A DNA stretch of 64,000 nt, taken from assembly GCA_035296325.1 (NCBI GenBank), contig DATHBD010000082.1, positions 137,771 to 201,770 on the forward strand, read 5' to 3'. Both the position numbers and the translations under genes were made by a program. A model generated the notes under the pieces. The model was not told the DNA's origin. It made no database searches and saw only the letters and a list, made by a program, of their open reading frames with translations. Shown piece by piece: positions 30,997-56,212 of the stretch. Within the stretch, counting starts at the first letter, position 1; each line of letters begins with the position of its first letter. The stretch is from Micromonosporaceae bacterium. Its GTDB lineage: Bacteria; Actinomycetota; Actinomycetes; Mycobacteriales; Micromonosporaceae.

Positions 30997-33005
30997 TGGA
31001 TGTGCTCAACATCGGCTTCGGCGTACTGCTCGGCGTCGTGCTCCTCGTCCTCATCGCCCTCGCCTTCCTCGTCGCCCGACTGTTCCGCAAGATCGAGCAG
31101 GGCAAGGCCCTGATCGTCTCCAAGGTGCGCCGGGTCGATGTCACGTTCACCGGCGCCATCGTCCTGCCGGTGCTGCACAAGGCCGAGGTCATGGACATCT
31201 CGGTGAAGACCATCGAGATCGAGCGCAGCGGCAACGAAGGGCTGATCTGCCGGGACAACATCAGGGCCGACATCCGGATCACGTTCTTCGTCCGGGTCAA
31301 CAAGACCGTGGAGGACGTCATCAAGGTCGCCCAGGCCATCGGCACCGCCCGGGCCAGCGACGAGACCACGTTGCAGGAGTTGTTCAGCGCGAAGTTCTCG
31401 GAAGCCCTGAAGACGGTCGGCAAGCAGCTCGACTTCGTGGATCTCTACACCCAACGCGACGAGTTCCGCGATCAGATCCTGCGGGTCATCGGCACCGACC
31501 TCAACGGCTACAGCCTCGAGGACGCGGCCATCGACTACCTCGAGCAGACCCCGATGCACCGGCTCGACCCGGCCAACATCCTCGACGCCCAGGGCATCCG
31601 CAAGATCACTGAGTTGACCGCAATCGAGCATGTCCGGACCAACGAGTTCCAGCGCAACGAGGAAAAGGAGATCACCCGCCAGAACGTCGACGCGCGGGAG
31701 GCCATCCTCGAGTTGCAGCGCCGGCAGACCGACGCCGAGACCAAGCAGAACCGCGAGATCGAAACCATGCGGGCACGGGAGCAGGCCGAGATCTCCAGGG
31801 TCCAGGCGGAGGAGCGGCTCAAGGCCCAGACGGCCCATATCCGCACCGACGAGCAGCTCGGCATCCAGAACGAGAACCAGGCCCGGGAGATCGCCGTCGC
31901 GCAGAAAAACCGGGAACGCGTCATCGCCATCGAGACCGAGCGGATCGAGAAGGACCGCCAGCTCGAGATCATCGCCCGGGAACGCGAGACGGCGTTGTCC
32001 ACCATCTCGAAGAACAAGGAGGTGGAGACGGAGAAGCGGGCGATCGCCGAGGTGATCCGGGAACGGATCGCGGTGGACAAGACCGTGGCCGAGCAGGAGG
32101 AGAACATCAAGCGGCTGCGCGTCGTCGAGGAGGCGGAGCGCACCCGCCAGGCCGTGATCATCGCGGCGGAGGCCGAGGCGCAGGAGGGCCTGGTCAAGGA
32201 CATCAAGGCGGCCGAGGCCTCCGAGTTGGCCGCGCGGCACAAGGCCCGGGAGGACCTGGTCCTGGCGGAGGCACGCCAACAGGCCGCCGAACTGGACACC
32301 CGGGCGAAGATCCGCCTCGCCGAGGGACACCAGGCGGAGGCCGCCGCCGCCGGGCTCGCCGAGGTGCAGGTCCGCGAGCGCGACGCCGCGGCCACCGAGA
32401 AGGTCGGTCGCGCCGAGGCGGTGGTGGCGCGCGAGATGGCGCTGGTGGCCGCGGACGCGGTGCGGGACAAGCTCAAGGGCGAGGCCGAGGGCCTCACCGA
32501 CAAGGCAGCCGCGATGGCCGCCCTGGACTCCGCGAGTCGCGAGCACGAGGAGTACCGCCTGCGGCTGGAAGCGGAGAAGGAGATCCGGCTGGCCAGCATC
32601 GACGTGCAGCGGCAGATCGCCGACGCGCAGGCCTCCGTGGTCGCCGCGGGTCTGGAGAAGGCGAACATCGACATCGTGGGCGGCGACAGCGTCTTCTTCG
32701 ACCGGTTGATGAGCTCCATCACCATGGGCAAGAGCGTCGACGGGTTCGTCGAGCACTCCGATGTCGCGAAGGCGCTCGGCGGCCCGTGGTTGGACGGCTC
32801 GGGGAACTTCGGGCAGGACCTGACCCGGCTGCTCGGCTCGCTCAACAGCAACGACATCAAGAACCTGACCCTCGCAACGCTCCTCGGCCAACTGATCAAG
32901 GCCGGCGGGTCGGACGCCGGCAAGCTCCGTGAGCTGTTGAGTACCGCGCATCGGCTCGGCGTTGCGGAGGCGCCCGTCGCCGCGCTCGCCACGTCGAGGC
33001 AGTGA
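30996..33005 (+). CDS. Flotillin-family SPFH/band-7 protein (FloT/YqiK-like)
   Basis: N-terminal TM 'IGFGVLLGVVLLVLIALAFLVA'. SPFH domain 'KALIVSKVRRVDVTF...DISVKTIEIERSGNEGLICRDNIRADIRITFFVRV'. Then a long E/A/R-rich coiled-coil 'flotillin' region. 669 aa. Confidence 0.85.
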   Translation: MDVLNIGFGVLLGVVLLVLIALAFLVARLFRKIEQGKALIVSKVRRVDVTFTGAIVLPVLHKAEVMDISVKTIEIERSGNEGLICRDNIRADIRITFFVRVNKTVEDVIKVAQAIGTARASDETTLQELFSAKFSEALKTVGKQLDFVDLYTQRDEFRDQILRVIGTDLNGYSLEDAAIDYLEQTPMHRLDPANILDAQGIRKITELTAIEHVRTNEFQRNEEKEITRQNVDAREAILELQRRQTDAETKQNREIETMRAREQAEISRVQAEERLKAQTAHIRTDEQLGIQNENQAREIAVAQKNRERVIAIETERIEKDRQLEIIARERETALSTISKNKEVETEKRAIAEVIRERIAVDKTVAEQEENIKRLRVVEEAERTRQAVIIAAEAEAQEGLVKDIKAAEASELAARHKAREDLVLAEARQQAAELDTRAKIRLAEGHQAEAAAAGLAEVQVRERDAAATEKVGRAEAVVAREMALVAADAVRDKLKGEAEGLTDKAAAMAALDSASREHEEYRLRLEAEKEIRLASIDVQRQIADAQASVVAAGLEKANIDIVGGDSVFFDRLMSSITMGKSVDGFVEHSDVAKALGGPWLDGSGNFGQDLTRLLGSLNSNDIKNLTLATLLGQLIKAGGSDAGKLRELLSTAHRLGVAEAPVAALATSRQ

Positions 33006-36000
33006 GCGGGCAGGTGGCCGACCCCGCCGCTCCCGGTGCCGCTCCCGCCGCTCCCGGGGCCGACAGGGGGACCGTTCCCGGCGCGACGGCGGCCCCGCGC
33101 GACGCTGACCGGAACGGCGCCGAGCCGTCCGTCGGCACCGGACTGGACGCGGGCACCTACGAGGTGCTCCGGGGGCGCCTGCGCACCCAGGTTGCCGAGC
33201 TCGGCCGGCGGGCGGAGGCGCTCAACGCCCGCCGCCTGACGACGTTCGGCAGCACCGAACTGAGCCTGCTCGGCACGGAGCGGATCCGCACCGAGCACAA
33301 CTGCGTGCCCCGCGACATCGTCTCGGTGGGCGGGCGGATGCTGTTCGGGTACAACGTCTTCATCGGCCTCAAGGCCGAGACGTCGGTCGACGATGTGTTC
33401 TCGCTGCACCACTTCGCCCGGGCGGAAGGGGCCGGCGCGGAGGCCGGCGCGGGCACCGCGGCCGGCAAGGCGGCATTCCGGTTCGAGGACGCGGCCGCCG
33501 ACGAACTGCCCGGCCTGCTGCGCGCCGCCCAGTTCCAGCGCGACTTCGCCGAACTGTACCGCTACTACCGGGAGACCCGGCTGGTCCAGCTCCGACGCCT
33601 CGACGGTCGGCTGCTGGCCATCTTCCAGACGAGTCCCCGCATCGACGACATCCGGGTACTGCGGTGGCGGGTCGACACCTCGGGCGCGGTCAGCTATCTG
33701 GACAACCGGGGCGAGCGCGACCACACGTTCCCGCCGTCACACGACTTCGAGTGGCTCGAAACCACGCGGGACAACCACGTGCTGGGGCGACACCCACACA
33801 TCTCAATCGATGACGAGGTCTTCGTCGAGACGGTCGGCGGCAACCTCACCGTGAAGGTGGAGAACAACACCGAGTCCGGGGAGGGCGTCTACAGCGAGCC
33901 GGTCGAGGAGCCGCTGCAGAGCCTCGCCGACGCCGACGTGTCGTACGCCAGGGTGGGGCCGCTGATCCTGCTCCGGATCCGGCCGTACAAGGAGACCCAG
34001 TGGCGGCACCTGGTCTTCAACACCCGGACCCGGGCGGTGGTGCGACTCGACAGCATCGGGCAGGCATGCCAGCGCCTGCCCGAGGATCACGGGATCATCT
34101 TCCCCGGCGGGTACTACCTGTCCACCGGCGCGACGAAGACGTTCGAGACGGACGTGGCGAGCCTGGAGTTCGAGCGGATGATCCGCTCCGCGAACGGCGA
34201 GGACGTGCTCTACGTCTTCCACGCCCGGGCCGAGGGCCGCAGCCTGCTGCTGTCGTACAACGTGATCCGCAAGGAGATCGCCAACCCGATCCCGTGCCAC
34301 GGCTACTCGCTCTTCGACGACGGCACGCTTGTCGTCTTCCGGGCCACCTCCGAGGAGCCGACCCGGGTGCACCCGATGCAGGTCTGGCAGACGCCGTACC
34401 AGTCCGACACCTACGCGGCGGCGCAGCCGGTGGGCACCGGGCCGCTGGAGCGCATCGGCAACGCCGAGCTGGTCCGTGGCATCTCCGACTGCCTTTCGCT
34501 GGGGCGCATGGTCGAGGAGATGGCCCCCTCCGTGGCGGTCTTCGAGGCGCTCATCGCGACCTGTGCCAAGATTTTCGACCACTACCACTGGCTTGGTGAA
34601 TCCGAGCTCGGTGATCTCCGTGCGCCGTTGGCGGACGTGCGGGCCACCGCGGAACAGGTCCTCGACGAGTACGAGACGGTGCAGACCCTGACCGCCCGCG
34701 CCGCCGCTGACCTCGCCACCGCCGCAGCCGAGATCACGTCGATGATGCGGCTGGCCCGGGCCGAGGCGCCGCGCACCGCCGACGCCTGGGTCACCCAACT
34801 CGCCGAGCTGCGACGCGCCCAGGGCCGGCTGATCACCCTGCGGGAGCTGCGTTACGTCGACGTCGCCGAGATCGACCGGCTGGCCGGCGATCTCGCCGCC
34901 GAACTGACCGCGGCAGCGCAGCGCGCGGTCGAGTTCCTGCAGGGCGACGACGCATTTGCCGGCTACCACGCGCAGGTCGATGGGTTGATCGCCGACGCCG
35001 AGGCGATCGCCACCGTCGCGGACGCGACTCCGGTCACCGAACGGCTCACCGCGCAGGCCGAAGGCCTGGAGATTGTGACCGAGGTGGTCGGGTCCCTGGA
35101 CGTCGCCGCGGCCACGGTCCGGACCGCCATCCTGGCCCGGATCGGTGAGGTGCTCGCCGGCGTCAACCGGGCCCGGGCGACCCTGGACGCCCGCCGCCGG
35201 GAGTTGCGCTCGGCTGAGGGCCGCGCCGAGTTCGCCGCCGAATTCGCCCTGCTCAGCCAGGCGGTCACCGGCGCGTTGGCGACTGCCGACACGCCGCAGC
35301 GCTGTGACGAGCAAGTGGGTCGGCTCCTTCTGCAGCTGGAGAACATGGAGTCGCGCTTCGCCGACCTGGACGACTTCGGCGCGCAGTTGGCCGACAAGCG
35401 CGAAGACGTGTACGAGGCCTTCGCGTCGCGCCGGCAGGCCCTCGTCGACGAGCGGGCCCGGCAGGCCGGCCGGCTCAGCGACTCGGCGGAGCGGATCCTG
35501 CGCAGCGTGCAGCGCCGGGTCGCCGGCCTGCGCTCGCTGGACGAGGTGAACACGTACTTCACCTCCGATCCGATGATCACCAAGCTGCGCGCGGTGGGCG
35601 AACAGCTGCGCGCCCTCGGCGACGCTGTCCGGGCCGAGGAACTCGAGGGCCGGGTCAAGGCCGCCCGCCAGGAGGCCGGCCGGGCGCTGCGCGACCAACT
35701 GGACCTCTACAGCGACGGCGGCGAGACGATCCGACTGGGGCGGCACCGGTTCGCGGTCAACACCCAGTCCATCGACCTCACCCTGGTGCCGCAGGACGGC
35801 CGGATGAGCCTGGCCATCACCGGGACGGACTACCGCGCCCCCGTGCACGACCAGGCGTTCCAGGCCACCCAGCCGTACTGGGAGCAGTTGCTGGTCTCCG
35901 AGTCACCGCAGGTGTACCGGGCGGAGTACCTGGCCACCGCCATCCTCGCCGACGCCGAGCTGGGCGGCGGTGGGCTCAGCGTGGACGCGCTGTACCGGGC

Positions 36001-38167
36001 GGCGGCCGATGCCAGCCTGGAGGATCTGGTCCGCCGGGTCGCCGAGAGCCGGTACGACGAGGGGTACGTGCGCGGCATCCACGACGCCGACGCCACCGTG
36101 ATCCTGGACGCGCTGCTGCGGTTGTACGCCGGCGCCGGTCTGCTGCGCTACCCGCCGGCGGCGCGCGCGATGGCGCAGGTGTTCTGGTCGTTCGGCTGCG
36201 CCGAGCCGACCCGGGCGGCGTGGACGACGCGGGCGGTGTCGCTGGCCCGGGCCCGAACCATGTTCGGCCGGCCGACGGACAACGGCGCGGACGCGGCCGA
36301 CGACCTACGCGCCGAGGTGGCCGCCGCGCTGACATCGTTCGCTTCTGGCGCCCGTCTGGCCGGGTGGGCCGGCGGCGACCTCGACCTGAGCGCCGAGTAC
36401 CTCACCGGGGAACTCGCCTGCGCACCGCTCGGCTTCGTCACCAGCGCTGCGGCCCGGGCCCTGCTCGACGACTTCCGCACCGCGCTCGGCGGGCCGCAGT
36501 CCAAACAGGGCGCCGAGTTCACCGAGGACCTGCGCGCGTTGGGGGACGACCTGGCCGCCCGGGCGCAGCTGGTCACGGCATGGCTCGGGGCGTTCCTCTC
36601 CACCACCGCCAGCCCCACCTCAGCCACCCCCGCGGACGGGAACGCCGGGGCGGCACGGCGGTACTCGGCCGCCGACCTGCCGGAAGCCGTCGCCATCGAG
36701 CTGTGCGGCGCCGCCCTCCCCCGGCACGACTCCTCGGCGAGCCTGTCCGAAGTCGTCGTCGGCCTGCTCGGCTCGCATCCACGCGTTCTCGATCGACGGC
36801 TGCGCCTGAACATCGACGAGGTGCTGACCCGGACCAGGCGGTTCCGCACGGTACGGGTGCCGGCCTTCCGCGCGTACCAGCGCCAGCGCACCGAGCTCCT
36901 CGCCGCCCAGCGGGAGCGGCTGCGGCTGTCGGAGTACCAGCCGTCGGTGATGAGCGCCTTCGTCCGCAACCGGTTGCTGGATGAGGTCTACCTGCCGCTG
37001 ATCGGGGCCAACCTGGCCAAGCAGCTCGGTGCGGTCGGTGCCGGCAAACGCACCGACCAGATGGGGCTGCTCCTGCTCATCTCGCCGCCGGGGTACGGCA
37101 AGACCACCCTCATGGAGTACGTGGCGAGCCGGCTCGGTCTGGTGTTCGTCAAGGTCAACGGACCTGCCCTGGGGCACGCGGTCACCTCGCTCGATCCCGC
37201 CGAGGCACCCAACGCCACCTCGCGGCACGAGGTGGCGAAGATCTCCTTCGCCCTCGAGCTGGGCAGCAACGTGCTGCTGTACCTGGACGACATCCAGCAC
37301 ACCTCGCCGGAGCTGCTGCAGAAGTTCATTTCACTCTGTGACGCCCAGCGCCGGATGGAGGGGGTGTGGGACGGCCGGACCCGCACGTACGACCTGCGCG
37401 GCAAGCGCTTCGCGGTCTGCATGGCCGGCAACCCGTACACCGAGTCCGGCCAGCTCTTCCGCGTCCCGGACATGTTGGCGAACCGGGCCGACGTCTGGAA
37501 CCTGGGCGACGTGCTCGCCGGCCGGGAGGATCTCTTCGCGCTCAGCTACGTCGAGAACGCACTGACCTCCAACCCGGTCCTGGCGCCGCTGTCCACCCGG
37601 GACCGCGCCGACATCGGGCTGCTGGTGCGCCTCGCCGACGGCGACGACACGGTCCGGCCGGACCAGCTCAGCCATCCGTATGCGGCGGCGGAGCTGGAGC
37701 AGATCCTGGCAGTGCTGCACAAGGTGCTCCGGGTGCAGCGCGTGGTGCTCGCCAACAATCAGGCGTACATCGCCTCGGCGGCACAGTCCGACGCGTCCCG
37801 CACCGAGCCGCCGTTCCTGCTCCAGGGCTCGTACCGCAACATGAACAAGTTGACCGAGCGCATCGTCGCGGTGATGAACGACGACGAGCTGGACGCCGTC
37901 ATCGACGACCACTATCTCGGCGAGGCGCAGACGCTCACCTCCGGCGCCGAGGCCAACCTGCTGAAGTTCGCGGAACTGCGCGGCACGATGACGGCCGAGC
38001 AGGCCCGGCGGTGGGCCGAGGTGAAGGCCGGCTACCTGCGGGCACGTGCGCTGGGCGGGGACGCCGACGACCCGATGAGCCGCGCGGTGGGCGCCGTCGG
38101 CCTGGTGGCCGATGGTGTCCGGGCCGTCGAGCACGCCATCCGTCGGGCGGCGGAGCGGCCGGCCTGA
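33002..38167 (+). CDS. Giant (1721 aa) flotillin-operon protein with C-terminal AAA_5-type (MoxR/McrB/dynein-like) ATPase domain; function unknown
   Basis: GTG start overlaps the flotillin stop (GTGA). About 1250 aa N-terminal with no recognisable motifs and a long helical middle. C-terminal 'LLLISPPGYGKTTLMEYV' (Walker A), 'VLLYLDDIQHTSPELLQKFISLCD' (Walker B), and '...RFAVCMAGNP', the Asn-Pro ending characteristic of AAA_5 modules. Confidence 0.65.
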   Translation: MSGQVADPAAPGAAPAAPGADRGTVPGATAAPRDADRNGAEPSVGTGLDAGTYEVLRGRLRTQVAELGRRAEALNARRLTTFGSTELSLLGTERIRTEHNCVPRDIVSVGGRMLFGYNVFIGLKAETSVDDVFSLHHFARAEGAGAEAGAGTAAGKAAFRFEDAAADELPGLLRAAQFQRDFAELYRYYRETRLVQLRRLDGRLLAIFQTSPRIDDIRVLRWRVDTSGAVSYLDNRGERDHTFPPSHDFEWLETTRDNHVLGRHPHISIDDEVFVETVGGNLTVKVENNTESGEGVYSEPVEEPLQSLADADVSYARVGPLILLRIRPYKETQWRHLVFNTRTRAVVRLDSIGQACQRLPEDHGIIFPGGYYLSTGATKTFETDVASLEFERMIRSANGEDVLYVFHARAEGRSLLLSYNVIRKEIANPIPCHGYSLFDDGTLVVFRATSEEPTRVHPMQVWQTPYQSDTYAAAQPVGTGPLERIGNAELVRGISDCLSLGRMVEEMAPSVAVFEALIATCAKIFDHYHWLGESELGDLRAPLADVRATAEQVLDEYETVQTLTARAAADLATAAAEITSMMRLARAEAPRTADAWVTQLAELRRAQGRLITLRELRYVDVAEIDRLAGDLAAELTAAAQRAVEFLQGDDAFAGYHAQVDGLIADAEAIATVADATPVTERLTAQAEGLEIVTEVVGSLDVAAATVRTAILARIGEVLAGVNRARATLDARRRELRSAEGRAEFAAEFALLSQAVTGALATADTPQRCDEQVGRLLLQLENMESRFADLDDFGAQLADKREDVYEAFASRRQALVDERARQAGRLSDSAERILRSVQRRVAGLRSLDEVNTYFTSDPMITKLRAVGEQLRALGDAVRAEELEGRVKAARQEAGRALRDQLDLYSDGGETIRLGRHRFAVNTQSIDLTLVPQDGRMSLAITGTDYRAPVHDQAFQATQPYWEQLLVSESPQVYRAEYLATAILADAELGGGGLSVDALYRAAADASLEDLVRRVAESRYDEGYVRGIHDADATVILDALLRLYAGAGLLRYPPAARAMAQVFWSFGCAEPTRAAWTTRAVSLARARTMFGRPTDNGADAADDLRAEVAAALTSFASGARLAGWAGGDLDLSAEYLTGELACAPLGFVTSAAARALLDDFRTALGGPQSKQGAEFTEDLRALGDDLAARAQLVTAWLGAFLSTTASPTSATPADGNAGAARRYSAADLPEAVAIELCGAALPRHDSSASLSEVVVGLLGSHPRVLDRRLRLNIDEVLTRTRRFRTVRVPAFRAYQRQRTELLAAQRERLRLSEYQPSVMSAFVRNRLLDEVYLPLIGANLAKQLGAVGAGKRTDQMGLLLLISPPGYGKTTLMEYVASRLGLVFVKVNGPALGHAVTSLDPAEAPNATSRHEVAKISFALELGSNVLLYLDDIQHTSPELLQKFISLCDAQRRMEGVWDGRTRTYDLRGKRFAVCMAGNPYTESGQLFRVPDMLANRADVWNLGDVLAGREDLFALSYVENALTSNPVLAPLSTRDRADIGLLVRLADGDDTVRPDQLSHPYAAAELEQILAVLHKVLRVQRVVLANNQAYIASAAQSDASRTEPPFLLQGSYRNMNKLTERIVAVMNDDELDAVIDDHYLGEAQTLTSGAEANLLKFAELRGTMTAEQARRWAEVKAGYLRARALGGDADDPMSRAVGAVGLVADGVRAVEHAIRRAAERPA

Positions 38168-40651: not shown

Positions 40652-42460
40652 CTAGCTGATCCGAACGAACCGCCACTGCTGCTGAACGGCGCCGGTGTCG
40701 GTCCACTGGACGGCGGCCGAACCATTCGTGGTCCCGCTGCCGTTGTCCAGGGCCTTGCCGCTACGCCTCGAGATCAGCTTGAACGCGCCGCCCGCCGCCG
40801 CGGTGATGGCCCACTGCTGCGGGTCGCCGCCGTTGTCGGTCCACTGCATCGCGGGCGCCCCCTCGGTCAGGACGTAGCCGTTGTCCAGGGCCTTGCCGCT
40901 GTGCCGGCTGATCAGCTTGTAGTAGCCACCGCTGAGTGCGGTGACGGTCCACTGCTGCGCCGTGCCGCCGTTGTCGGTCCACCCCACGACGCCAGCGCCG
41001 TCGGTGGTCGAGCTGGCGTTGTCGAGCGCCAGGCCACTGTGCACGCTGACCAGCTTGTACACCCCGCCCGAGACGATTCCGGTGGCAGGTGCACCGGAGC
41101 CTGCGACGGGAACCCCGGACACCTCGACCACGACGACCGACACGTTCGGGTTGGGCGCTGCGGTGGGCACCCGGACGTTGATGAACCCGCCGCTGACCGT
41201 GTACGTCAGCGACGTACCCGGGCTGTTCAGCAGGTAGACCCGGCTGATCGTGTTCTGCAGCGTCGGGATCTGCAGGGTGCCGCCGGTGGGCCAGTTGAAG
41301 ACGTGGGCGTAGAGCCGGCCGTTCTTCTTGGTGTAGCGGCCCCAGGACGGCTCGGAGCTGAACGGGCTGGCCGTCGCTCCGTAGATGCTGTCGCCGTAGA
41401 TGCCCATCCAGGAGCCGATGGCGTTGAGCAGGTTCACCGACCCGGTGGGTACCGCGCCGTTGCCCATTGGCCCGATGTTTAGCAGGTAGTTCCCGTCCCG
41501 GGAGACCACCGTCGCCAGCTCCTGGATCAGCGTCCGCGCCGACTTGTACGAGTTCTCCCGGCCGGCGTCGTAGCCCCACGCGCCGTTCAGCGTCGCGCAG
41601 GTCTCCCACGGGCGGGACAGCGGCCGTGCCGGCACGGTCTGCTCCGGGCACTCGAAGTCACCGAGGCCGGTGTGGCGCTTCACCCGCTCGTTGACGATCA
41701 GATTGGGCTTGCGGGCGATCAGCCAGTTGTACAGGTCCTGACCGTCGGCCCGGTTCCACCAGTCGGCGAGCGTCGGGGTGGCGCGGTCCACGCACCAGTC
41801 CCCGTCGAACCACATCACCGCGGGGTCGTAGCGGTCCAGCAGTTCCTGCAGCTGCGCCTTCATGTCGCGCACGTAATTGGCCTTGGCGGTCATCGACGAC
41901 ACCGTGGAGAAGACCGTGTCGGTCTTGCGCAGGGTCTGCGACGGGTGGCTCCAGTCCAGGATGGAGTAGTAGAGGCCGAACACGATGCCCTGGCGGGTGC
42001 ACTCCGCCTTCAGCTGGGCCAGCAGGTCGGCCTTGTACGGGGTGTAGGCGGGCAGGGTGTACGGGCGGCCCGCGGTGTCGGTGAAGCTCGCGACCTTGGA
42101 ATCCCACATGGCGAAGCCCTCGTGGTGCTTGGCCGTGATCACCAGGTACTTCATCCCGGCGGCCTTCGCCAGCCCGACGATGCTGGCGGCACTGAAGCTG
42201 GTCGGGTTGAACCGGGCCGAGATGTCACGGTGGTAGTTGGCCTTGGCCCAGGTCTCGTTGGCGAAGACCCACTCGCCGCGACCCGCGTACGAGTACGACC
42301 CGAAGTGGATGAACATCCCGAACCGGGCCGCGTACCACCAGTTCATCTTCGAGGGCACGGTGTAGGCGGATGCCTCGGTGGCACGCAGGGCGAGCGGCAC
42401 GCCGATGGCGGCCATCCCGGTCGCCGCGGCGCCCAACTTGATCAATTGCCGGCGACTCAT
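40652..42460 (-). CDS. Secreted GH29 alpha-L-fucosidase with C-terminal ricin-B lectin domains
   Basis: Tat signal 'MSRRQLIKLGAAATGMAAIGVPLALRATEASA'. 'ARFGMFIHFG...KYLVITAKHHEGFAMWDS...MWFDGDW' is the GH29 core. C-terminal 'QQWTV...QQWAI...QQWRF' are ricin-B QxW repeats. Start at the ATG at 42460; the GTG at 42472 is possible. Confidence 0.8.
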   Translation of the reverse strand: MSRRQLIKLGAAATGMAAIGVPLALRATEASAYTVPSKMNWWYAARFGMFIHFGSYSYAGRGEWVFANETWAKANYHRDISARFNPTSFSAASIVGLAKAAGMKYLVITAKHHEGFAMWDSKVASFTDTAGRPYTLPAYTPYKADLLAQLKAECTRQGIVFGLYYSILDWSHPSQTLRKTDTVFSTVSSMTAKANYVRDMKAQLQELLDRYDPAVMWFDGDWCVDRATPTLADWWNRADGQDLYNWLIARKPNLIVNERVKRHTGLGDFECPEQTVPARPLSRPWETCATLNGAWGYDAGRENSYKSARTLIQELATVVSRDGNYLLNIGPMGNGAVPTGSVNLLNAIGSWMGIYGDSIYGATASPFSSEPSWGRYTKKNGRLYAHVFNWPTGGTLQIPTLQNTISRVYLLNSPGTSLTYTVSGGFINVRVPTAAPNPNVSVVVVEVSGVPVAGSGAPATGIVSGGVYKLVSVHSGLALDNASSTTDGAGVVGWTDNGGTAQQWTVTALSGGYYKLISRHSGKALDNGYVLTEGAPAMQWTDNGGDPQQWAITAAAGGAFKLISRRSGKALDNGSGTTNGSAAVQWTDTGAVQQQWRFVRIS

Positions 42461-47948: not shown

Positions 47949-49238
47949 GTGACCGGCACCCTGCCCGAAACACCCGACCTCGCCGCGGGCGCGGCCAGCA
48001 TCGGCGGCGCCGACGAGATCCTCAGCGACGGCGCCGTCCGGCAGTTCGTGGTCCGCTCCCTGCTCGGCGCCGACCTCGACGGCAGCAGCGTCTGCGTCAT
48101 CGTCCCGGACGCCACCCGCAGCTGCCCGCTTCCCCTGCTGCTCTCGGCGGTGCACGAGGCGCTGGCCGGGCGGGCGACCCGGGTGACGGCGCTGGTCGCG
48201 CTGGGCACGCACGCCGCGATGACCGCTGCCGAACTGGGCGCGCACCTGGGCTATCCGGCCGGCGATCCGGCGACACGCTATCCCGGCTGGACCGTGCGCA
48301 ACCACGAGTGGTGGAAGCCGGACACGTTCGTCTCGCTCGGCACGATCGACGCGGAGCGAGTCGCGGAGCTGTCCGAAGGGCGGCTGCGGCAGGCGGTGCC
48401 GGTCGCCCTGAACCGGGCCGTGATCGAGCACGACGTCTCACTGGTGGTCGGGCCGGTGTTCCCGCACGAGGTCGTCGGCTTCTCCGGCGGGAACAAGTAC
48501 TTCTTCCCGGGCGTCGCCGGGCCAGAGGTGATCGACTTCTCACACTGGCTCGGCGCTCTGATCAGCAGCGCCGAGATCATCGGCACCCGGGGGATCACGC
48601 CGGTGCGGGCGCTCATCGACCAGGCCGCGTCGATGATTCCGAGTCGGCGGCTGGCGCTGTGCCTGGTGGCGCAGTCCGGTACCAGCGCGCTGCACGCGGC
48701 GTCGTTCGGTGCGCCGGAGGCTGCCTGGGCCGCGTGCGCCGACGTGTCGGCCCAGACCCATGTGCGCTACCTCGACGCGCCGGTGCGGCGGGTGCTGTCG
48801 GTCGTGCCGACGAAGTACCGGGACATGTGGACCGGCGCCAAGGGCTTCTACAAGGTGGAGCCGGTGGTCGCCGACGGTGGGCAGGTCATCGTGTACGCCC
48901 CGCACATCACCCAGATCTCCGCGATGCACCCGCACATCGAGGAGATCGGATACCACTGCCGGGACTACTTCCTCAAGCAGTGGGACCGGTTCTCCCACCA
49001 CCACTGGGGCGACCTCGCCCACTCCACCCACCTGCGCGGCGCCGGCACCTGGGACCCGGAGCACGGCGAACGCGGCCGGGTCACCGTCACGCTGGCCACC
49101 GGCATCCCGGAGGACGTGGTGCGCCGGGCGAACCTGGATTACCTCGATCCGGCCGAGGTGGACCTGGACCGCCTCGCCGCCGACCCGGACACGCTCATCG
49201 TGCCCCAGGCCGGCGAGGTCCTGTTCCGTCTGCGCTGA
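47949..49238 (+). CDS. LarA-like (lactate racemase / DUF2088 family) protein
   Basis: 429 aa. 'VCVIVPDATRSCP...ALGTHAAMT...GPVFPHEVVGFSGGNKYFFPGVAG...HSTHLRGAGTW' matches the LarA N- and C-terminal domain layout with conserved His/Lys positions. Assignment by family resemblance only. Confidence 0.55.
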   Translation: MTGTLPETPDLAAGAASIGGADEILSDGAVRQFVVRSLLGADLDGSSVCVIVPDATRSCPLPLLLSAVHEALAGRATRVTALVALGTHAAMTAAELGAHLGYPAGDPATRYPGWTVRNHEWWKPDTFVSLGTIDAERVAELSEGRLRQAVPVALNRAVIEHDVSLVVGPVFPHEVVGFSGGNKYFFPGVAGPEVIDFSHWLGALISSAEIIGTRGITPVRALIDQAASMIPSRRLALCLVAQSGTSALHAASFGAPEAAWAACADVSAQTHVRYLDAPVRRVLSVVPTKYRDMWTGAKGFYKVEPVVADGGQVIVYAPHITQISAMHPHIEEIGYHCRDYFLKQWDRFSHHHWGDLAHSTHLRGAGTWDPEHGERGRVTVTLATGIPEDVVRRANLDYLDPAEVDLDRLAADPDTLIVPQAGEVLFRLR

Positions 49239-49251
49239 CCCCGGACTCAGC

Positions 49252-49329
49252 CCCGCGATCTTGCAGTCCTGCCTCGGGCAAATCACCGCGAATGGCGCAG
49301 AACGGCGGGCACGGCTGCAAGATCACGGG
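49252..49329 (+). repeat. Copy 1 of a conserved ~78-nt inverted-repeat element (gatcttgcag...gggcaaatcacc...ctgcaagatc)
   Basis: Between the larA-like stop and the MMPL 3' end, overlapping the last MMPL codons. About 80% identical to the copy at 54749-54827. The terminal arms 'gatcttgcagtcctgcc' and 'ggcacggctgcaagatc' are imperfect inverted repeats. Confidence 0.6.
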
Positions 49330-51421
49330 TGGGTGGCGGCGGAGCGGCCCGGGTGATCCGACCGGGCCACCACATCCGTGGGCCGAGATCCACCGCCAGC
49401 GCCGGGATGAGCAGGCTCCGGACCAGCAACGCGTCCAACAGGACGCCGACCGCCACGATGACGCCCATCTGCAGGGAGGGCACCAGTGGCAGGACACCGA
49501 GCGCCGCGAACGTCGCCGCCAGCACCAGCCCCGCGCTGGTGACGACCCCTCCGGTGACCGTGAGCGCGTGCAGCACACCGCGACGATGGCCGAGCGTGAC
49601 CGCCTCCTCGCGGGCGCGGGTCATCACGAAGATCGTGTAGTCCACGCCCAGCGCCACCAGGAACAGGAACGTCTGCAGGGGCAGCGCCACCCAGAGATTG
49701 GGGTAGCCGAGTACCGGCAGGATGAGGCCCGCCGCGCCGAGCGCCGCCGCGTATGACAGCACCACGCTGGCGAGCAGCACCACCGGGGCGACAAGCGCGC
49801 GCAGCAGCAGCACCAGGACCGCGAGGACCACGACCAGGATCAGTGGCATGACCACCCGGTTGTCCCGGTCGATGACCCGGTCGGAGTCGAGCGCGGCAGC
49901 CGCGTCGCCGCCCACCAGCGCGTCGGCGCCCGGGACGGCATGCACGGCGGTCCGCAGGCGGCGCACGGTGTCCTTGGCGGCGGCACTCTCCGCCTCGGCC
50001 GCGAGGACGGCGTCGATGCGGACCCAGCGGCCGTCCGCCGAGGACACCGCCGGCCGGACCTCGGCCACGCCGGGGACCGCCGCGGCGACGGCGGCCACCG
50101 CGGCCGCTCCATCCGCGGTTGCCAGGACGGTGGTCGGCGAGGATGCGCCGCCGGGATAGTGCCGCTCGATGAGGCGCTGGCCGGTCACCGAGCCCACCTC
50201 GCTTGTGAAGTTCTCCGACGCGGGCAGGCCGAGGCTGAGGTTGCCCATGCCGAGGGTGAGTACGCCGAGCGCGGCTGCCGTCCCGACCCAGATCAACCGC
50301 GGCCGCCGGCCCACCGCCCCAGCCACCCGGGCCCAGCCCCGGTGGTCCTCGGCTGCGTCATGACCGACCGCGCCGGGCGTGTACCGGGGGACGAACGGCC
50401 AGAACATCCACCGTCCACCCAGGACCAGCAGAACCGGCAGCAGGGTCGTCATGGCGGCCAGCGCGCCCAGCACCCCGATCGCGGCCACCGGACCGAGGCC
50501 GCGCGTCGCGGGCATCTGCGCCGCCAGCAGGCACAGCAGGCCGAGCGCCACCGTGGCGGCCGACGCCAGGATCGCCGGGAAGGAGCGCCGCAGCGCCACC
50601 GCCATCGCCTCGTGCCGGTCGGCGTGGCGGCGCAACTCCTCGCGGTAGCGGGCGATCAGCAGGAGCGCATAGTCCACACCGACTCCGAAGAGCAGCACCG
50701 TGAGGATGCTCTGGCTCTGCAGATCCACGGCCAGCCCGCCGTAGCGGGCGAGCAGGTAGATCACCGCCGTCGCCACCTGGCTCGCGACCAGTACGGCGAC
50801 CAGTGGGACGAGCCACAGCACCGGGCTACGGTAGGTCAATAGCAGCAGCAGGATGACCACCCCGGCGGTCACCAGCAGCAGGGTGCTGTCCATACCGTCG
50901 AACGCGTCCAGGACGTCCTGGAATCCCCCGGCCGACCCGGTCAGTGCGGTACGCAGCCCCGGCGGGCTGTCGGCGGCCAGCCGCTTCTTGATCTCCGCCA
51001 CCGCCGTACCCTGCTGGTCGTCGTCGCCGGCCAGCGGGAACACCAGCAGCGTCGCGGCGCCGTCGCCGCTGGGCACCGCGTCGACGGAGCCGGCCCGGGC
51101 GTACCCGGCGAAGGCCGCGCGATCGCCTTCCACCTTGGCCCGGTCGGCGGCGGTCAGCCCGCCGTCCCTGGCATACACGGCGACCGCGACGAGGCCGTCG
51201 GAGCCGGGGAACGCGGCGGCCGCGCGCTCAGCCGCGCGGGCCGCCTCGGCACTCGCCGGCAGCGCCGCCAGCGAGTCGTTGTTCTGTACCTCGCTCAGCT
51301 TCATGCCGAGCGGCGTGGCGAGGGCGGCCAGCAGGAGCCAGATGGCCAGGGTCAGGAACTTGGCGCGCCGGCCCGCGGGTGCGGGCCGGCGCGCGAATCG
51401 CTGGGAAGTCGATTTGGTCAT
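49283..51421 (-). CDS. MMPL-family (RND-superfamily) membrane transporter
   Basis: 712 aa with two 6-TM bundles separated by soluble loops ('...MWFWPFVP...' and '...VDYTIFVMTRARE...'). Typical MMPL N-terminus with a single TM then a large periplasmic domain. Confidence 0.8.
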   Translation of the reverse strand: MTKSTSQRFARRPAPAGRRAKFLTLAIWLLLAALATPLGMKLSEVQNNDSLAALPASAEAARAAERAAAAFPGSDGLVAVAVYARDGGLTAADRAKVEGDRAAFAGYARAGSVDAVPSGDGAATLLVFPLAGDDDQQGTAVAEIKKRLAADSPPGLRTALTGSAGGFQDVLDAFDGMDSTLLLVTAGVVILLLLLTYRSPVLWLVPLVAVLVASQVATAVIYLLARYGGLAVDLQSQSILTVLLFGVGVDYALLLIARYREELRRHADRHEAMAVALRRSFPAILASAATVALGLLCLLAAQMPATRGLGPVAAIGVLGALAAMTTLLPVLLVLGGRWMFWPFVPRYTPGAVGHDAAEDHRGWARVAGAVGRRPRLIWVGTAAALGVLTLGMGNLSLGLPASENFTSEVGSVTGQRLIERHYPGGASSPTTVLATADGAAAVAAVAAAVPGVAEVRPAVSSADGRWVRIDAVLAAEAESAAAKDTVRRLRTAVHAVPGADALVGGDAAAALDSDRVIDRDNRVVMPLILVVVLAVLVLLLRALVAPVVLLASVVLSYAAALGAAGLILPVLGYPNLWVALPLQTFLFLVALGVDYTIFVMTRAREEAVTLGHRRGVLHALTVTGGVVTSAGLVLAATFAALGVLPLVPSLQMGVIVAVGVLLDALLVRSLLIPALAVDLGPRMWWPGRITRAAPPPPTRDLAAVPAVLRHSR

Positions 51422-51451
51422 GCCGGCAGCGTCCGCCGGCGCGCTGACCGC

Positions 51452-54400
51452 TCACGCACCTGACGCTGACGGACCCGCTGACAGCAGTGCGGCGACCTCC
51501 CCGTCGGCGAGCGCCGCACCGCGGGCGTACACGGCGTCGTAGGCCGCGTCACCGAGCACCGCCCGCGCCCGCGCTGCCACCCGCGCGCCGTCGCAGTCGC
51601 CGGTGCCCGTCTCGCGCCGTAACGTTCCCGCCGCACCCAGCAGCAGCGCCGCCTGCAGCGCGTCGCCTTCCAGCAGGGCCACCCCGGCGAGGCCCTCGGC
51701 AACCGGGGCGGCCGCGCCGAATCGGCCGCCCTCCGCCGCGGCGAGCGCCTGCTCGTGCCACGCCCGCGCGGTCGGCGCGTCACCGGCTGCCTCCGCGATC
51801 CATCCCAGTGCGGTAAGGATGCGCAGGCGGAGCAGGTCGGGCCCGAACCACCCGGTCGGGCAGTCCAGCAGCGCCGCATCGGCCAGCTCCCGGGCGCCGT
51901 CCAGGTCGCCGCCGAGGCGGGCCACGTCGGCCAGTCCGAGGGTGGCCATCGCCAGCGCCTCGCGGGTGGCCCCGCGCCGCGCCAGGTGCGCGGCGTGGGC
52001 GAAGTCGGCCTGGGCACTCGCCAGGTCCCCGGCGGCGGCGGAGCTGCGACCCCGTCGGCACATCAGCTCCACGATGTCGTCGGTGGAGTCCAGTTGCGCG
52101 GCCAGACTCAACGCCTCATCGATCATCGCGAGGAAGCCCGCCCGGTCACCCCGCCACTCCGCCAGCGACGCCAGATCGGCCAGCGTGTTGGCCATCCCCC
52201 AGCGATCGCCGACCGCACGGAAGCCGGCCAGCGCGGCGGACAGCTCCGTGTCTCCCTCGGCCAGCCGACCGCTGTACAGCTCGATCGCACCCAACCCGTA
52301 CCGGGCCAACGCCCGCAACCACGGGTCCTCGCCCAGCTGGTGCACCATCATCCGGTCGAGCGCATCCTCGGGAGGCGGCCCCATCGTCATGCCGTGCAGC
52401 ACGTTGAGGAACGGGTAGCGGGCCGGGCGCCGCAGCGCGTACACGATGTTGCGGGCCTGCTCGACCCGTGCCTGCAGCGGCGCGGTCGAGGAACTGCCCG
52501 CGGTGGTGTCGAGCAGGCACATCGCGTACTCGTCGAGCAGCTCCGGTGACGGTTCGCCGGGCAGGCGGTCGAGCACCAGGCCGGCGAGGGCGGCACCTTC
52601 GCTGCGCAGCCCGCGCAGCCACCAGTACCCGGACAGGTTCGCCACCAGCCGCAGCGCGGTCGCCGTGTCGCCGGCAGCGGTCGCCCGCCGCACCGCGGCG
52701 TGCAGGTTGTCGCGATCGGCGTCCAGCCGGCGCAGCCAGTCCACCTGCTCATGGCCACGCAGGTAAGGGTCCGCGGTACTCGCGACCCCGAGGAAGTACG
52801 CAGCGTGCGCGGCCCGCAGTCGCTCCTCCTCGCCGGCCTCGGCAAGGCGCTCGGCAGCGTAGGCCCGCACCGTCTCCGACATCCGGTAGCGCCCGTCCGC
52901 GACATCCACCAGGGACTTCTCCACCAGGCCGGTCAGCACGTCGACGACCGTGGCGGGTGGCAGCCCGCAAACCCGCTCGATCGCCGCCAGGGTGGCGCCG
53001 CCGGCGAAGACGGTGAGCCGCCGGGCCAGACCGCGCTCCTCCTCGGCCAGCAGGTCCCAGCTCCAGTCGACCACCGCGCGCAGGGTGCGGTGCCGGGGCG
53101 CCGAGGCGCGGCTGCCCCGCGACAGCAGGGCGAAGCGGTCGTCCAGACGCGCCGCCACCTCCGCCGGCGTCAGCGAGCGCAGTCGGGCGGCGGCCAGCTC
53201 AATGGCGAGCGGGAGGCCGTCCAGCGCCCGGCACACCCGTCCCACGTCGGAAACGGTCGACGCGTCCAGCGTGAAGTCGGGTCGGACGGCGGTCGCCCGA
53301 TCGACGAAGAGCCGGACGGCCGGGAAGGCCATCGCTTCAGCGAGTGTGGCACCCGGTGGCGGCAGCGCCAACGGCGGCACCGGGCAGAGACTCTCGCCGG
53401 TGATGCCCAACGCCTCCCGGCTGGTGGCCAGGATCTGCAGCGTGGGGCAGGCACGGAGCAGCCGGTCGGCGAAGGTGGCGACCGCTGCCACCACGTGCTC
53501 ACAGTTGTCCAGGACGAGCAGCAACCGGTGCCCGTTCAGGGCCGCGACGAGTCGGCCCACCGGGTCGGGCGGGCGCGGCATGCGATCCGGGCCCGGCCGG
53601 AGTCCAGCCTCGCGCAGACCCAGCGCCCCGAGTACGGCCCGCGGTATGTCCGCGCCGTCCACCAGGGGCGCCAGCTCGACGAACGCCACTTCGCCACCGT
53701 GCCGGGCGGCGGCTTCCGCGGCGAGCCGGGTCTTGCCCGCCCCGCCGGGCCCGGTGAGCGTGACCAGCCGCGTGGAGCCGAGCAGCTGCTCCACCCGGAC
53801 AAGCTCTTCGCCGCGTCCAACGAACGTGGTGAGCTGCGCCGGAACGGCATCGTGGCGCAGCCGGCCGGTGCCCGGCAGCCCGGAGCCGGGCGACGGGCCG
53901 GCCGCCGGGCGACCGGGGAGCGGATCGGGCACCGGGTCGGCGCGCAGGATGGCCAGGTGGACGGCTGCCAGTTCGGCCGACGGATCCACGCCGAGTTCGT
54001 CGGCGAGGGTGCGCCGGGCGTCGGTGTACACGGCGAGCGCCTCGGCCGGGCGACCATCGGCGTACAGCGCGTGCATCAGCCGCGCCCGCAGCCGCTCCCG
54101 CAGCGGATGCACGGCGACCAGTTCGCGCAGCTCGGCCACGAGCGGGGCGTGACGACCAAGGGCGAGCTCGGCGGCGGCACGGTCCTCGACCGCGGTGAGC
54201 CGCGACTCCTCCAGTCGGGCGGCAGCGACCCGACCGGCCGGCACCTCCAGCACCTCCGCCAGCGCCGCGCCGCGCCACAGGTCGAGGGCCTCGCGGAGCA
54301 GGTCGGCGGCGCTCGCCGGGTCCGCCGCGGCCAGCGCACCGCGGCCCGCCGCGGCCAACGCCGTGAACCGGCACGCGTCGACCCGGTCCGGATCCACAAC

Positions 54401-54697
54401 GAGCCGGTACCCGGCCGGGTGGAACTCCACCGCCACGCCGTACCGCCCGGCGTCGGTCGCCGCGTCTCCCGTGATGAGCGCCCGACGCAGCCGGGAAACC
54501 TGGGACTGCAGGGCGTTCGGCGCGCCGATGGGTGGCTGCCCGCCGTACACGCCGTCGATCAGCGACTCCGTGGGCACCACCCGACCCACGTCGGCCAGCA
54601 GGAGCGCGAGGAGCGCGCGCAGCCGGGCACCGCCGAGGGTCAACTCCCGCCCGTCGGCGAACCACACCTGGGTCGGACCCAGGATGCCGAAGCGCAT
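51452..54697 (-). CDS. SARP/AfsR-family transcriptional regulator (OmpR-type winged helix + BTAD + NB-ARC ATPase + TPR)
   Basis: 'MRFGILGPTQVWFADGRELTLGGARLRALLALLL' (SARP DNA-binding). 'LDLWRGAALAEV' (BTAD). 'LVTLTGPGGAGKTRLA' (P-loop). A long C-terminal Ala/Leu-rich TPR-like region. 1081 aa. Confidence 0.85.
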   Translation of the reverse strand: MRFGILGPTQVWFADGRELTLGGARLRALLALLLADVGRVVPTESLIDGVYGGQPPIGAPNALQSQVSRLRRALITGDAATDAGRYGVAVEFHPAGYRLVVDPDRVDACRFTALAAAGRGALAAADPASAADLLREALDLWRGAALAEVLEVPAGRVAAARLEESRLTAVEDRAAAELALGRHAPLVAELRELVAVHPLRERLRARLMHALYADGRPAEALAVYTDARRTLADELGVDPSAELAAVHLAILRADPVPDPLPGRPAAGPSPGSGLPGTGRLRHDAVPAQLTTFVGRGEELVRVEQLLGSTRLVTLTGPGGAGKTRLAAEAAARHGGEVAFVELAPLVDGADIPRAVLGALGLREAGLRPGPDRMPRPPDPVGRLVAALNGHRLLLVLDNCEHVVAAVATFADRLLRACPTLQILATSREALGITGESLCPVPPLALPPPGATLAEAMAFPAVRLFVDRATAVRPDFTLDASTVSDVGRVCRALDGLPLAIELAAARLRSLTPAEVAARLDDRFALLSRGSRASAPRHRTLRAVVDWSWDLLAEEERGLARRLTVFAGGATLAAIERVCGLPPATVVDVLTGLVEKSLVDVADGRYRMSETVRAYAAERLAEAGEEERLRAAHAAYFLGVASTADPYLRGHEQVDWLRRLDADRDNLHAAVRRATAAGDTATALRLVANLSGYWWLRGLRSEGAALAGLVLDRLPGEPSPELLDEYAMCLLDTTAGSSSTAPLQARVEQARNIVYALRRPARYPFLNVLHGMTMGPPPEDALDRMMVHQLGEDPWLRALARYGLGAIELYSGRLAEGDTELSAALAGFRAVGDRWGMANTLADLASLAEWRGDRAGFLAMIDEALSLAAQLDSTDDIVELMCRRGRSSAAAGDLASAQADFAHAAHLARRGATREALAMATLGLADVARLGGDLDGARELADAALLDCPTGWFGPDLLRLRILTALGWIAEAAGDAPTARAWHEQALAAAEGGRFGAAAPVAEGLAGVALLEGDALQAALLLGAAGTLRRETGTGDCDGARVAARARAVLGDAAYDAVYARGAALADGEVAALLSAGPSASGA

Positions 54698-54748
54698 ACC
54701 GCTGATTGTCGCTCACCGCCCGCTCCGTCGGCCCCCGCGCCGACCCCT

Positions 54749-54827
54749 CCCGCGATCTTGCAGTTGTGCCTCGGGCAAATCACCCCGGAAAGGGGCAGAG
54801 CGGCGCGCACGACTGCAAGATCGCGGG
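54749..54827 (+). repeat. Copy 2 of the conserved ~78-nt inverted-repeat element
   Basis: In the divergent intergenic region between the SARP start and the protease start. The terminal arms 'gatcttgcagttgtgcc' and 'gcacgactgcaagatc' pair over 16 nt with one U-G wobble. Shares the central conserved 'ctcgggcaaatcacc' with copy 1. Confidence 0.6.
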
Positions 54828-54943
54828 AGGACGCGGGGCGGGTGTCCGATTCGGTGGAGATGTCTTCGGGGGGCACGACCATGGCAGGGGCGATGCCATA
54901 GTGACCCGGTCCACATCGATGAACGCCAACCGGGGGAGCATCT

Positions 54944-56212
54944 TTGCGAATATTCCGAGTCCCTGCCGTCCTCGGCGTCAGCCTCGTGCTGGTGGCCGGG
55001 CTTGCCAGCGCGGCGCAGGCCGATCCGCCAGAAACGCGACACCGCAGCGGCATCGTCATCGTGCCCTCCACGGACCCGCCGGTCGGCGAGCCGATCTCGG
55101 ACGCCCTGGGCCAACTCCTGCACGAGGCGGCCGATGCCGTCGAGGCCAGGCCGGAAGATCTGGCATACCCGTGGTACGACCGCGCCAGCAACGCGGTCGT
55201 GGTTGACACCGTGAACGATCAGGGCGACATGTTGGCCGCCGGGCTTGTCGGTGCCCGGGGCGGCCTGGGCGCTGTCACCCGCAACCGACGGGTGCCGCAC
55301 AGCTGGGCGAAGCTCCAGAGCATCAAGGACGAGGCGATCGCGTTGACCGCGACGGACGTGCCGGACGGTGACGCGATCTTCATGACCGAGCCGGACCCCG
55401 AGCACAATCGCGTCGTCATCTACACGACGCGGATGTCCGACGAGTTCCTTGACGCGCTGGCCGAGCGTTACGGCACATCAGCGGTCGCGGTTCGCCACAT
55501 GCCCGGCCAGATCTCCTCCACCGGCGACGCGCGCAACAACGACACGTCCCCGTTCTACGGTGGCGCCAGGATCGACTCGCCGTCCGGGTGCACCACCGGA
55601 TTTTCGTGGCGGTCGGGGGCCATCAACATGATGCTGACGGCCGGCCACTGCGTGCCCGGCGGTGGCACGCTCCACACCCCGGTCGCCGTGATCGGGCCGG
55701 TGGCGCCGAACTCCCGGGAGAACTGGAAGCCGGGCACCGGCACGGTCTACCTGACCGGCCAGACCACCTACCGCGGCGACGTGGCTCTTGCGACGGTGAC
55801 GTCCCCGAGAACCTCCGGAGCGTCCATCTACCGCGGCGGGCCCGGTGCCAGCGTCAGCGCCCGCGTTGCCGAGATGTGGAGCCGGCGCCCCGCCACGAAC
55901 GACCGGTACTGCACCGGAGGTCATGTCACCGGAGAGAAGTGTGGTTGGTCGGTGTACCGGACCGGCATCAACTTCCGCTGGAGCAGCGGCGAATTGGCAC
56001 GCAACATGGTCCGGAGCTTCTACCGCACCGATACCTGCACCATCGGCGGCGACTCCGGAGGACCGGTCTACACCGTCCGCGCGGATGGCAGAATCGCCGC
56101 TAAGGGCATCCACCACGGGAAGTCCACCATGCCGGTCTTCGGCTGCATGGAGGTCTTCACCGACATCTGGGACGCCTACTACGCACTTCCGGGATCGCTG
56201 GCAACAGGATGA
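54944..56212 (+). CDS. Secreted S1-family serine protease (streptogrisin/alpha-lytic-protease-like, with propeptide)
   Basis: Signal peptide 'VLGVSLVLVAGLASAAQA'. About 180-aa prodomain. Catalytic 'LTAGHCV' (His), 'GDVALA' (Asp) and 'GGDSGGPVY' (Ser), with conserved Cys pairs. Confidence 0.8.
   Translation: MRIFRVPAVLGVSLVLVAGLASAAQADPPETRHRSGIVIVPSTDPPVGEPISDALGQLLHEAADAVEARPEDLAYPWYDRASNAVVVDTVNDQGDMLAAGLVGARGGLGAVTRNRRVPHSWAKLQSIKDEAIALTATDVPDGDAIFMTEPDPEHNRVVIYTTRMSDEFLDALAERYGTSAVAVRHMPGQISSTGDARNNDTSPFYGGARIDSPSGCTTGFSWRSGAINMMLTAGHCVPGGGTLHTPVAVIGPVAPNSRENWKPGTGTVYLTGQTTYRGDVALATVTSPRTSGASIYRGGPGASVSARVAEMWSRRPATNDRYCTGGHVTGEKCGWSVYRTGINFRWSSGELARNMVRSFYRTDTCTIGGDSGGPVYTVRADGRIAAKGIHHGKSTMPVFGCMEVFTDIWDAYYALPGSLATG

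Follow-up and report, generated by a model that had tools for sequence, protein, structure and literature searches.

What are the two look-alike palindromes that stand at 49-55 kb in a 64-kb stretch of a Micromonosporaceae genome (contig DATHBD010000082.1, 70% G+C), hereafter the window? Each is an inverted repeat of about 80 nt, and together they flank a transporter gene and a regulator gene. The initial annotation, made from this DNA alone, took them for a possible miniature inverted-repeat transposable element (MITE) or a structured RNA. Our analysis shows that the pair belongs to a large, dispersed family of palindromic extragenic repeats in the Micromonosporaceae, which is probably mobile, comparable to the repetitive extragenic palindromic (REP) sequences, bacterial interspersed mosaic elements (BIMEs) and REPINs (REP doublets forming hairpins) of other bacteria, and tolerated at the 3' ends of genes. 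The window itself is ordinary, containing two members of a repeat family.

Copy 1 occupies positions 49252-49329 and copy 2 positions 54746-54830, both on the plus strand, with scores of 52.5 bits (E = 1.2e-10) and 61.3 bits (E = 7.6e-13), respectively, against covariance model R1. Both elements reported in the initial annotation are present, copy 2 extending slightly further than described. The core of copy 1, from GATCTTGCAG to CTGCAAGATC, spans 49257-49324 and that of copy 2 spans 54754-54822; their orientation is identical, and the A-rich strand of the copy 1 centre is the plus strand. The resemblance noted at first is real but closer than the estimated 80%: mean column identity is 86% in a MAFFT alignment that includes the flanks, and BLAST gives 87.3% across 79 nt. 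The blocks CCCGCGATCTTGCAGT, TGCCTCGGGCAAATCACC, and CTGCAAGATC are identical in the two copies. No third copy was found in the window by exact and 3-mismatch searches, by a repeat finder, or with the family covariance model.

The same element occurs far beyond this window, which bears out the proposal that it is a genuine repeat rather than a chance similarity. A scan of metagenomes for two 10-nt ends (GATCTTGCAG-N40-70-CTGCAAGATC, allowing 60-90 nt in total) recovers at least 120 loci, and copies are present in Micromonospora globbae and Micromonospora parva. Among the matches listed there are 129, of which 121 are 67-71 nt long, and nearly all lie on contigs of about 70% G+C. The arm pattern has a single match in 2.9 million viral contigs, on a low-GC, unrelated sequence, and other viral scans returned chance matches only. 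BLAST against plasmids with copy 2 and with the family consensus gave no match. The central 17-mer GCCTCGGGCAAATCACC, compared with a genome collection, yielded among the matches listed only chance ones from unrelated phyla, none of them accompanied by the arms. In the literature, searched by sequence and by topic, we found no description of this repeat family.

An alignment of 93 distinct members oriented by the A-rich strand (A2) is almost free of gaps and has the consensus GATCTTGCAGTTGTGGTG.C..ACAAA.CGG..C.AA...GGGCGAA..CTGGCACCACAACTGCAAGATC. The arms, GATCTTGCAGTTGTGG(TGCC) and its complement, hardly vary over 15-20 bp, and both ends are always GATC. Outside the 10 nt fixed by the search pattern, conservation is at least 90% at positions 11-15 and at the positions paired with them. 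Within about 700 kb of family loci, the flanks contain some 23 extra copies, and copies recovered independently of the pattern have exact ends in about half of the cases and usually one mismatch otherwise. From these copies, we estimate that the arms are about 97% conserved per base, compared with about 50% for the centre. The centre is 31 nt long, variable, and asymmetric, and it keeps an exact 10-nt period: columns 24, 34, and 44 hold a C, and an A-tract follows each of them. The arms are often extended by CGNNN-GATC, so that a second GATC lies 5 nt outside about one-third of the ends; beyond this extension of the palindrome, the flanks are rich in C on the left and in G on the right. Several loci (L214/L244, L239, L193, L212, L149, and L148) carry two elements side by side.

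The initial annotation described a hairpin-forming inverted repeat, and this description holds for both copies, each of which forms a long hairpin on either strand. Copy 2 folds into a 24-bp stem that takes in the C-rich and G-rich flanks CCTCCCGC and GCGGGAGG (dG -63.4 kcal/mol, z = -9.8), and copy 1 reaches -44.3 kcal/mol (z = -3.5); in each case, none of 200 shuffled sequences is as stable. The stem of copy 1 contains one C.C mismatch and two G.T pairs. Copy 2 is a well-preserved member of the family, and copy 1 is a degenerate, somewhat decayed one in a typical context. The compensatory changes said to distinguish the two were overstated: their stems differ at three positions (T.G/T-A, C-G/T.G, and C.C/G-C in copy 1/copy 2), each difference is one-sided, none is a double compensatory change, and copy 1 retains its mismatch. 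At pair 12/61, the T-A of the consensus could plausibly have passed through a wobble (T.G, as in copy 2) to C-G (as in copy 1), but this is a single case.

Covariation does emerge from the larger alignment that had been suggested as a check. Over a 20-bp stem in the 93 members, 92.9% of cells are standard pairs and nine pairs have changes on both sides; in the inner stem, G-C has become C-G in 9-12 sequences and T-A has become C-G in 14. None of 500 shuffles reaches the observed values, and controls in which the partners were slid are only 26-46% paired. Even within the "invariant" end, the M. parva copies carry a compensated pair, G10C/C63G (GCAC...GTGC). Because compensatory pairing exceeds both the shuffles and the slid controls, we conclude that the hairpin is under constraint. 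This does not extend to the self-complementary, covarying inner hairpin that had been proposed for the centre, which folds no better than shuffled sequence (family mean z = -0.4; copy 1, +0.2; copy 2, -1.4) and was rejected on these z-scores as a feature of the family.

Two short-read contigs from the Logan collection (L123 and L124) match this region; one begins within copy 2, and the outer edge of copy 1 is where both stop. Short-read assembly was broken here either by the hairpins or by other nearly identical copies present in those samples.

The position of the elements relative to genes is highly non-random. Genes were called by a simple third-position-GC method, which matches the Joint Genome Institute (JGI) gene calls around the two window copies. 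For 51 elements, both flanking genes are no more than 400 nt away. Their junctions are convergent in 32 cases, tandem in 18, and divergent in one, compared with 11.6, 30.2, and 9.2 expected from those loci (p = 4e-11). The gene ends that face an element are 3' ends in 125 cases and 5' ends in 39 (p = 1e-11). The median distance from stop codon to core is about 21 nt, with peaks at -2, where a TGA stop overlaps the terminal GATC (seven cases), and at 7 nt (ten cases, in five of which the stop is the TGA of an outer TGATC). Elements follow leuB, prfA, a ferrochelatase operon, and an rpsD paralogue, and in a Micromonosporaceae metagenome-assembled genome (MAG) one lies inside the F1Fo ATP synthase operon (L133, 14543-14611), separated by 7 nt from the end of atpD and by 20 nt from the following gene, atpC. 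The presence of a strong hairpin in this essential operon argues against full transcription termination by the element.

At one further locus (L175, 1026-2146), two elements bracket a single gene between leuB and a convergent gene. Its 284-aa product has weak matches to DUF559/MTES_1575 endonuclease-like and AbiEi-like proteins.

Several loci could be assigned within the Micromonosporaceae. The Ga0310834 contigs with the element belong to a MAG of this family, L187 is nearest to Virgisporangium (its ferrochelatase is 85% identical), L141 groups with Paractinoplanes globisporus, and one protein of L210 is identical to a protein of M. globbae. Cultured M. globbae genomes, the complete CP109307.1 among them, carry an element at the junction of an ABC-transporter gene with a convergent rpsD paralogue; it begins directly after the stop codon, at the point where homology to M. 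parva stops. Only M. globbae has an element at this junction, the M. parva group having no copy there. The reverse holds for the junction between a DUF2470 gene and a TetR gene: here the M. parva group carries an element, whereas M. globbae has none, its two stop codons being separated by 2 nt. Likewise, the L198 orthologues of the genes flanked by elements in L128 are without elements, as is the Phytohabitans flavus region syntenic with L187.

Two other differences between related loci were seen. The rpsD paralogue of M. globbae (L257, 11896-12507) encodes an extra ribosomal protein S4 and is absent from the syntenic region of M. parva. L227 and L233, two contigs with 99.6% identity, differ by an 87-nt indel, which was considered as a polymorphism of the element and rejected, as it is a copy-number difference in a 27-nt tandem repeat (GGCGCGGCGCTTCCGGCCGGTGCC..., L227 7601-7780) that is unrelated to the element.

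In the window, the gene order is Lar_N (plus strand), copy 1, MMPL (minus), a SARP/AfsR-like regulator (minus), copy 2, and a trypsin-like protease (plus), all assigned by Pfam and JGI gene calls. The window corresponds to part of a 353-kb JGI contig from a soil metagenome, and NCBI places the same MMPL protein in a Micromonosporaceae MAG. The lactate-racemase-like Lar_N gene (47949-49238) has its closest named relatives in Jidongwangia and Actinoplanes (82% for the protein) and ends 18 nt before the copy 1 core, the typical family context in which the 3' end of a gene abuts the element. Copy 1 lies between this gene and the convergent MMPL transporter gene (49283-51421), whose C-terminus was also aligned with homologues. 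The MMPL open reading frame (ORF) enters copy 1 and ends at a TGA in its centre, and the final 15 residues, TRDLAAVPAVLRHSR, plus the stop codon are encoded by the element (49283-49329, minus strand), the arm GATCTTGCAG being translated as Asp-Leu-Ala. The statement that both copies are intergenic thus does not fully hold for copy 1. In MMPL homologues, the C-terminal tails are unrelated in sequence and similar in length. In our interpretation, insertion of copy 1 replaced the original tail and the stop codon of this gene. An overlap of more than 30 nt with a called ORF was seen in about 18 of 115 family members, which may likewise rewrite protein C-termini.

The SARP gene (51452-54697) encodes 1081 aa with BTAD, NB-ARC/AAA, and TPR domains, and its start codon lies 56 nt from the copy 2 core. 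As this gene and the trypsin-like protease gene (54944-56212) are divergent, copy 2 sits in a divergent promoter region, a rare context found once among the 51 elements elsewhere. Scans for promoter and terminator consensus sequences around copy 2 detected nothing. The 10-nt repeats of the centre were considered as binding sites for the SARP regulator, a possibility we rejected, as the same pattern adjoins unrelated genes across the family. The SARP gene lies 30 nt upstream of the MMPL gene in the same orientation. MMPL orthologues in Micromonospora, Plantactinospora, and a forest metagenome contig are paired with a divergent HisKA_3/GerE two-component system; at these loci, the neighbouring genes differ and no elements were found. 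Synteny with the closest Lar_N loci breaks off at copy 1, which leaves the window copies without a clean empty site for comparison.

Among known repeats, the closest likeness is to the REPs, BIMEs, and REPINs of enterobacteria and Pseudomonas, which are also dispersed, non-coding, imperfect palindromes present in many copies. REPs are reported downstream of ORFs, at convergent or unidirectional junctions, and often as inverted dimers (PMC3733652). The elements described here share this preference for 3' ends and for convergent and unidirectional junctions, as well as the avoidance of promoters, the occasional position within an operon (here atpD-atpC), the occurrence as single copies and as adjacent pairs (for example, L214, L239, L193, and L212), and the absence of a target-site duplication. 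IHF-binding BIMEs have an asymmetric spacer between inverted arms, as does the Micromonosporaceae element. It differs from REPs and BIMEs in its arms, which measure 15-20 bp or more, compared with REP stems of 8-15 bp, in lacking an unpaired GTAG or CGTC tag (CGTC/GACG is frequent beside the core but is paired), and in its host, an actinobacterial family. One REP super-family, CGTC, is without a known dedicated transposase and has stems of 8-9 bp that start with A/T pairs, loops of 4-5 nt, and a CCA tail (PMC3733652). In the Micromonosporaceae element, CGTC is commonly found directly 5' of the stem (left flank consensus ..CGCGTC, followed by GATC), but this element has a stem of 20 bp or more and a 31-nt centre, and it lacks a CCA tail. 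Its much greater stem length, its paired tag, and the lack of that tail lead us to place it outside the GTAG and CGTC super-families, although it is REP-like in behaviour. The text of the REP survey mentions neither Actinobacteria nor the five actinomycete genera we looked for (PMC3733652).

Three other kinds of palindrome are similar in some respects. The Correia/NEMIS elements of Neisseria are non-coding MITEs of about 100 nt that end in long inverted repeats, frequently share a transcript with neighbouring genes, and sometimes supply gene ends. However, they have a TA target duplication and a recognisable transposon-like end, whereas for the Micromonosporaceae repeat we found neither a target duplication nor, in about 700 kb of family loci, a parent element. 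The attC sites of integrons are imperfect palindromes of similar length at gene 3' ends, with conserved ends and a variable centre, and two copies can bracket a unit. In contrast, the ends of our element are GATCTTGCAG/CTGCAAGATC, with no RYYYAAC/GTTRRRY, and its copies do not form co-oriented arrays beside intI; they follow core housekeeping genes in mixed orientations. Like intrinsic terminators, the elements place a stable GC-rich hairpin right after a stop codon and are enriched between convergent genes. Unlike terminators, they have no T/U tract, their 3' flank is G-rich, their loop is 31 nt long, and one stem sequence is common to hundreds of unrelated genes in several genera.

By analogy with REPs, we propose that the family would spread at the DNA level in a hairpin-dependent manner and without target duplication, a single-strand HUH/RAYT-like activity being the obvious candidate, and that elements would persist at gene 3' ends because they are harmless there. 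Whichever strand is transcribed, the palindrome would fold into a highly stable hairpin (-44 to -63 kcal/mol for the window copies), which could terminate or insulate transcription from convergent genes and shield the 3' ends of mRNAs, as in REPs. The element probably acts at gene 3' ends as a hairpin terminator or an RNA stabiliser, if the likeness to REPs extends to function.

A number of observations weigh against this model. No transposase or RAYT-like gene was found among about 57 neighbouring proteins scanned, a small sample. The arms are longer than those of classical REPs, and the hallmark GTAG tag is absent. For the terminator function, no U-tract follows the stem, the 3' flank being G-rich, and the terminator scan found none at copy 2. 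The density, which we estimate at about one copy per 30 kb, or a few hundred per genome, is extrapolated from non-ascertained copies that flank ascertained loci, and six other Micromonosporaceae loci totalling about 110 kb contain no copy. In addition, orthologous copies are stable in position among strains that are 92-99.5% identical, which points to slow or past movement. Between species, elements have been gained or lost, yet they are not hypermobile.

We also considered other origins and functions for the repeats. One is a classical MITE, derived by deletion from a DDE-transposase insertion sequence and mobilised in trans, whose terminal GATC would be a duplicated 4-bp palindromic target. 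The long, conserved terminal inverted repeats (15-20 nt), the differences in presence and absence between closely related species, the GATC at both ends, and the second GATC 5 nt outside about one-third of the ends are all compatible with this origin. However, the check for flanking target-site duplications suggested at the outset found none: there is no excess of 3-8-nt direct repeats at offsets 0-25, and no external direct repeat at any offset, except for the self-complementary GATC, although a duplication of that palindromic target would be invisible to a direct-repeat test. Moreover, the family loci contain no arm pair around a long insert and no solo arms, no transposase gene lies beside any copy examined, and near-invariant arms around a centre that has diverged to about 50% are a misfit with recent bursts from one master copy. 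A MITE in the strict sense seems unlikely. The other initial proposal, a strand-specific structured RNA (a cis-regulatory element of the 3' or 5' untranslated region or a small RNA) conserved for its fold, would account for the very stable hairpins, the stem covariation across the family, and the location of elements in transcribed 3' regions. It is disfavoured by the random orientation relative to neighbouring genes (six same-sense and eight antisense in tandem contexts) and by the about equal frequency of U.G (G.U) and C.A (A.C) mismatches in the stems. The stem is conserved as sequence, beyond pairing alone, and the asymmetric centre is unstructured. Comparison with Rfam 15, another of the suggested checks, matched no family: there was no match in the window at the gathering score and only noise at E up to 10, and none on an element in 10 family loci. 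We consider such an RNA very improbable. Alternatively, the arms might bind a protein dimer while the centre, with its phased A-tracts and GGGCRAA repeats, bends DNA or binds a third factor, as in IHF-binding BIMEs, dispersal being secondary. The per-base conservation of the arms across genera, the exact 10-nt period of the centre, and the absence of strand bias fit this proposal. No candidate protein was identified, though, and abutting stops while avoiding promoters is the opposite of the placement expected for a regulator. We regard protein binding as the primary role as quite improbable; it is, moreover, compatible with the REP-like interpretation, and E. coli REPs likewise bind gyrase and IHF.

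Two further explanations invoke the movement of genes. The window copies could be the boundaries (attL/attR-like sites or recombination scars) of a mobile SARP+MMPL cassette, given that they flank precisely this two-gene unit in the same orientation, that synteny with Lar_N loci stops at copy 1, that MMPL orthologues elsewhere are paired with a two-component system and not with a SARP, and that two copies flank the DUF559/AbiEi-like gene of L175. Yet the element also follows unrelated housekeeping genes (atpD, leuB, prfA, the ferrochelatase operon, and the rpsD paralogue), the genes flanked in L128 are conserved in L198 without elements, and neither an integrase nor a recombinase is encoded in the SARP-MMPL unit, nor an integrase by the other window genes scanned. 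At about one copy per 30 kb, a second copy is expected by chance within 5.5 kb on either side in roughly three cases out of ten. Because of this family density and the presence of copies beside unrelated genes, chance juxtaposition of the window copies is more likely than a cassette, which we hold to be highly improbable. A broader and more speculative possibility is that the arms and the phased centre are the recognition module of a novel sequence-specific system of the Micromonosporaceae. This system might be a domesticated, hairpin-binding HUH-type or other recombinase that places the element exactly at stop codons and is able to bracket and mobilise gene units such as SARP+MMPL or the DUF559 gene, or a machinery for protein-dependent 3'-end formation in a clade largely without U-tract terminators. 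We think this unlikely; if it were correct, it would be an actinobacterial recognition or 3'-end system with no described counterpart. Overall, we favour a REP-like repeat family as the source of the two window copies.

The Micromonosporaceae (Micromonospora, Actinoplanes, and relatives) are major antibiotic producers. To our knowledge, dispersed REP-like repeats have hardly been described in Actinobacteria. The elements matter for annotation, as they supply stop codons and C-terminal tails, as in MMPL, and they are candidates for compact bidirectional terminators or insulators in the engineering of high-GC actinomycetes. Their presence or absence between species could provide markers for typing and evolutionary studies, and the invariant arms with the phased centre offer an entry point to a protein that recognises or moves such palindromes.

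The window contains other features apart from the palindromes. A 1146-aa protein (17479-20919, plus strand) combines an N-terminal TIR domain with many WD40 repeats, and may function in TIR-based signalling or defence. Its WD40 units account for the direct-repeat families D2, D4, D5, and D7 at 18.9-20.7 kb. Two adjacent large ORFs (30996-33005 and 33002-38167, plus strand) encode 669 and 1721 aa, the former with no Pfam match, and have GGDEF-EAL genes on either side. Finally, three 138-nt tandem repeats, 69-73% identical (40673-41068), lie within a gene annotated by JGI as an alpha-L-fucosidase with Ricin-B lectin domains, and probably represent beta-trefoil subdomains.

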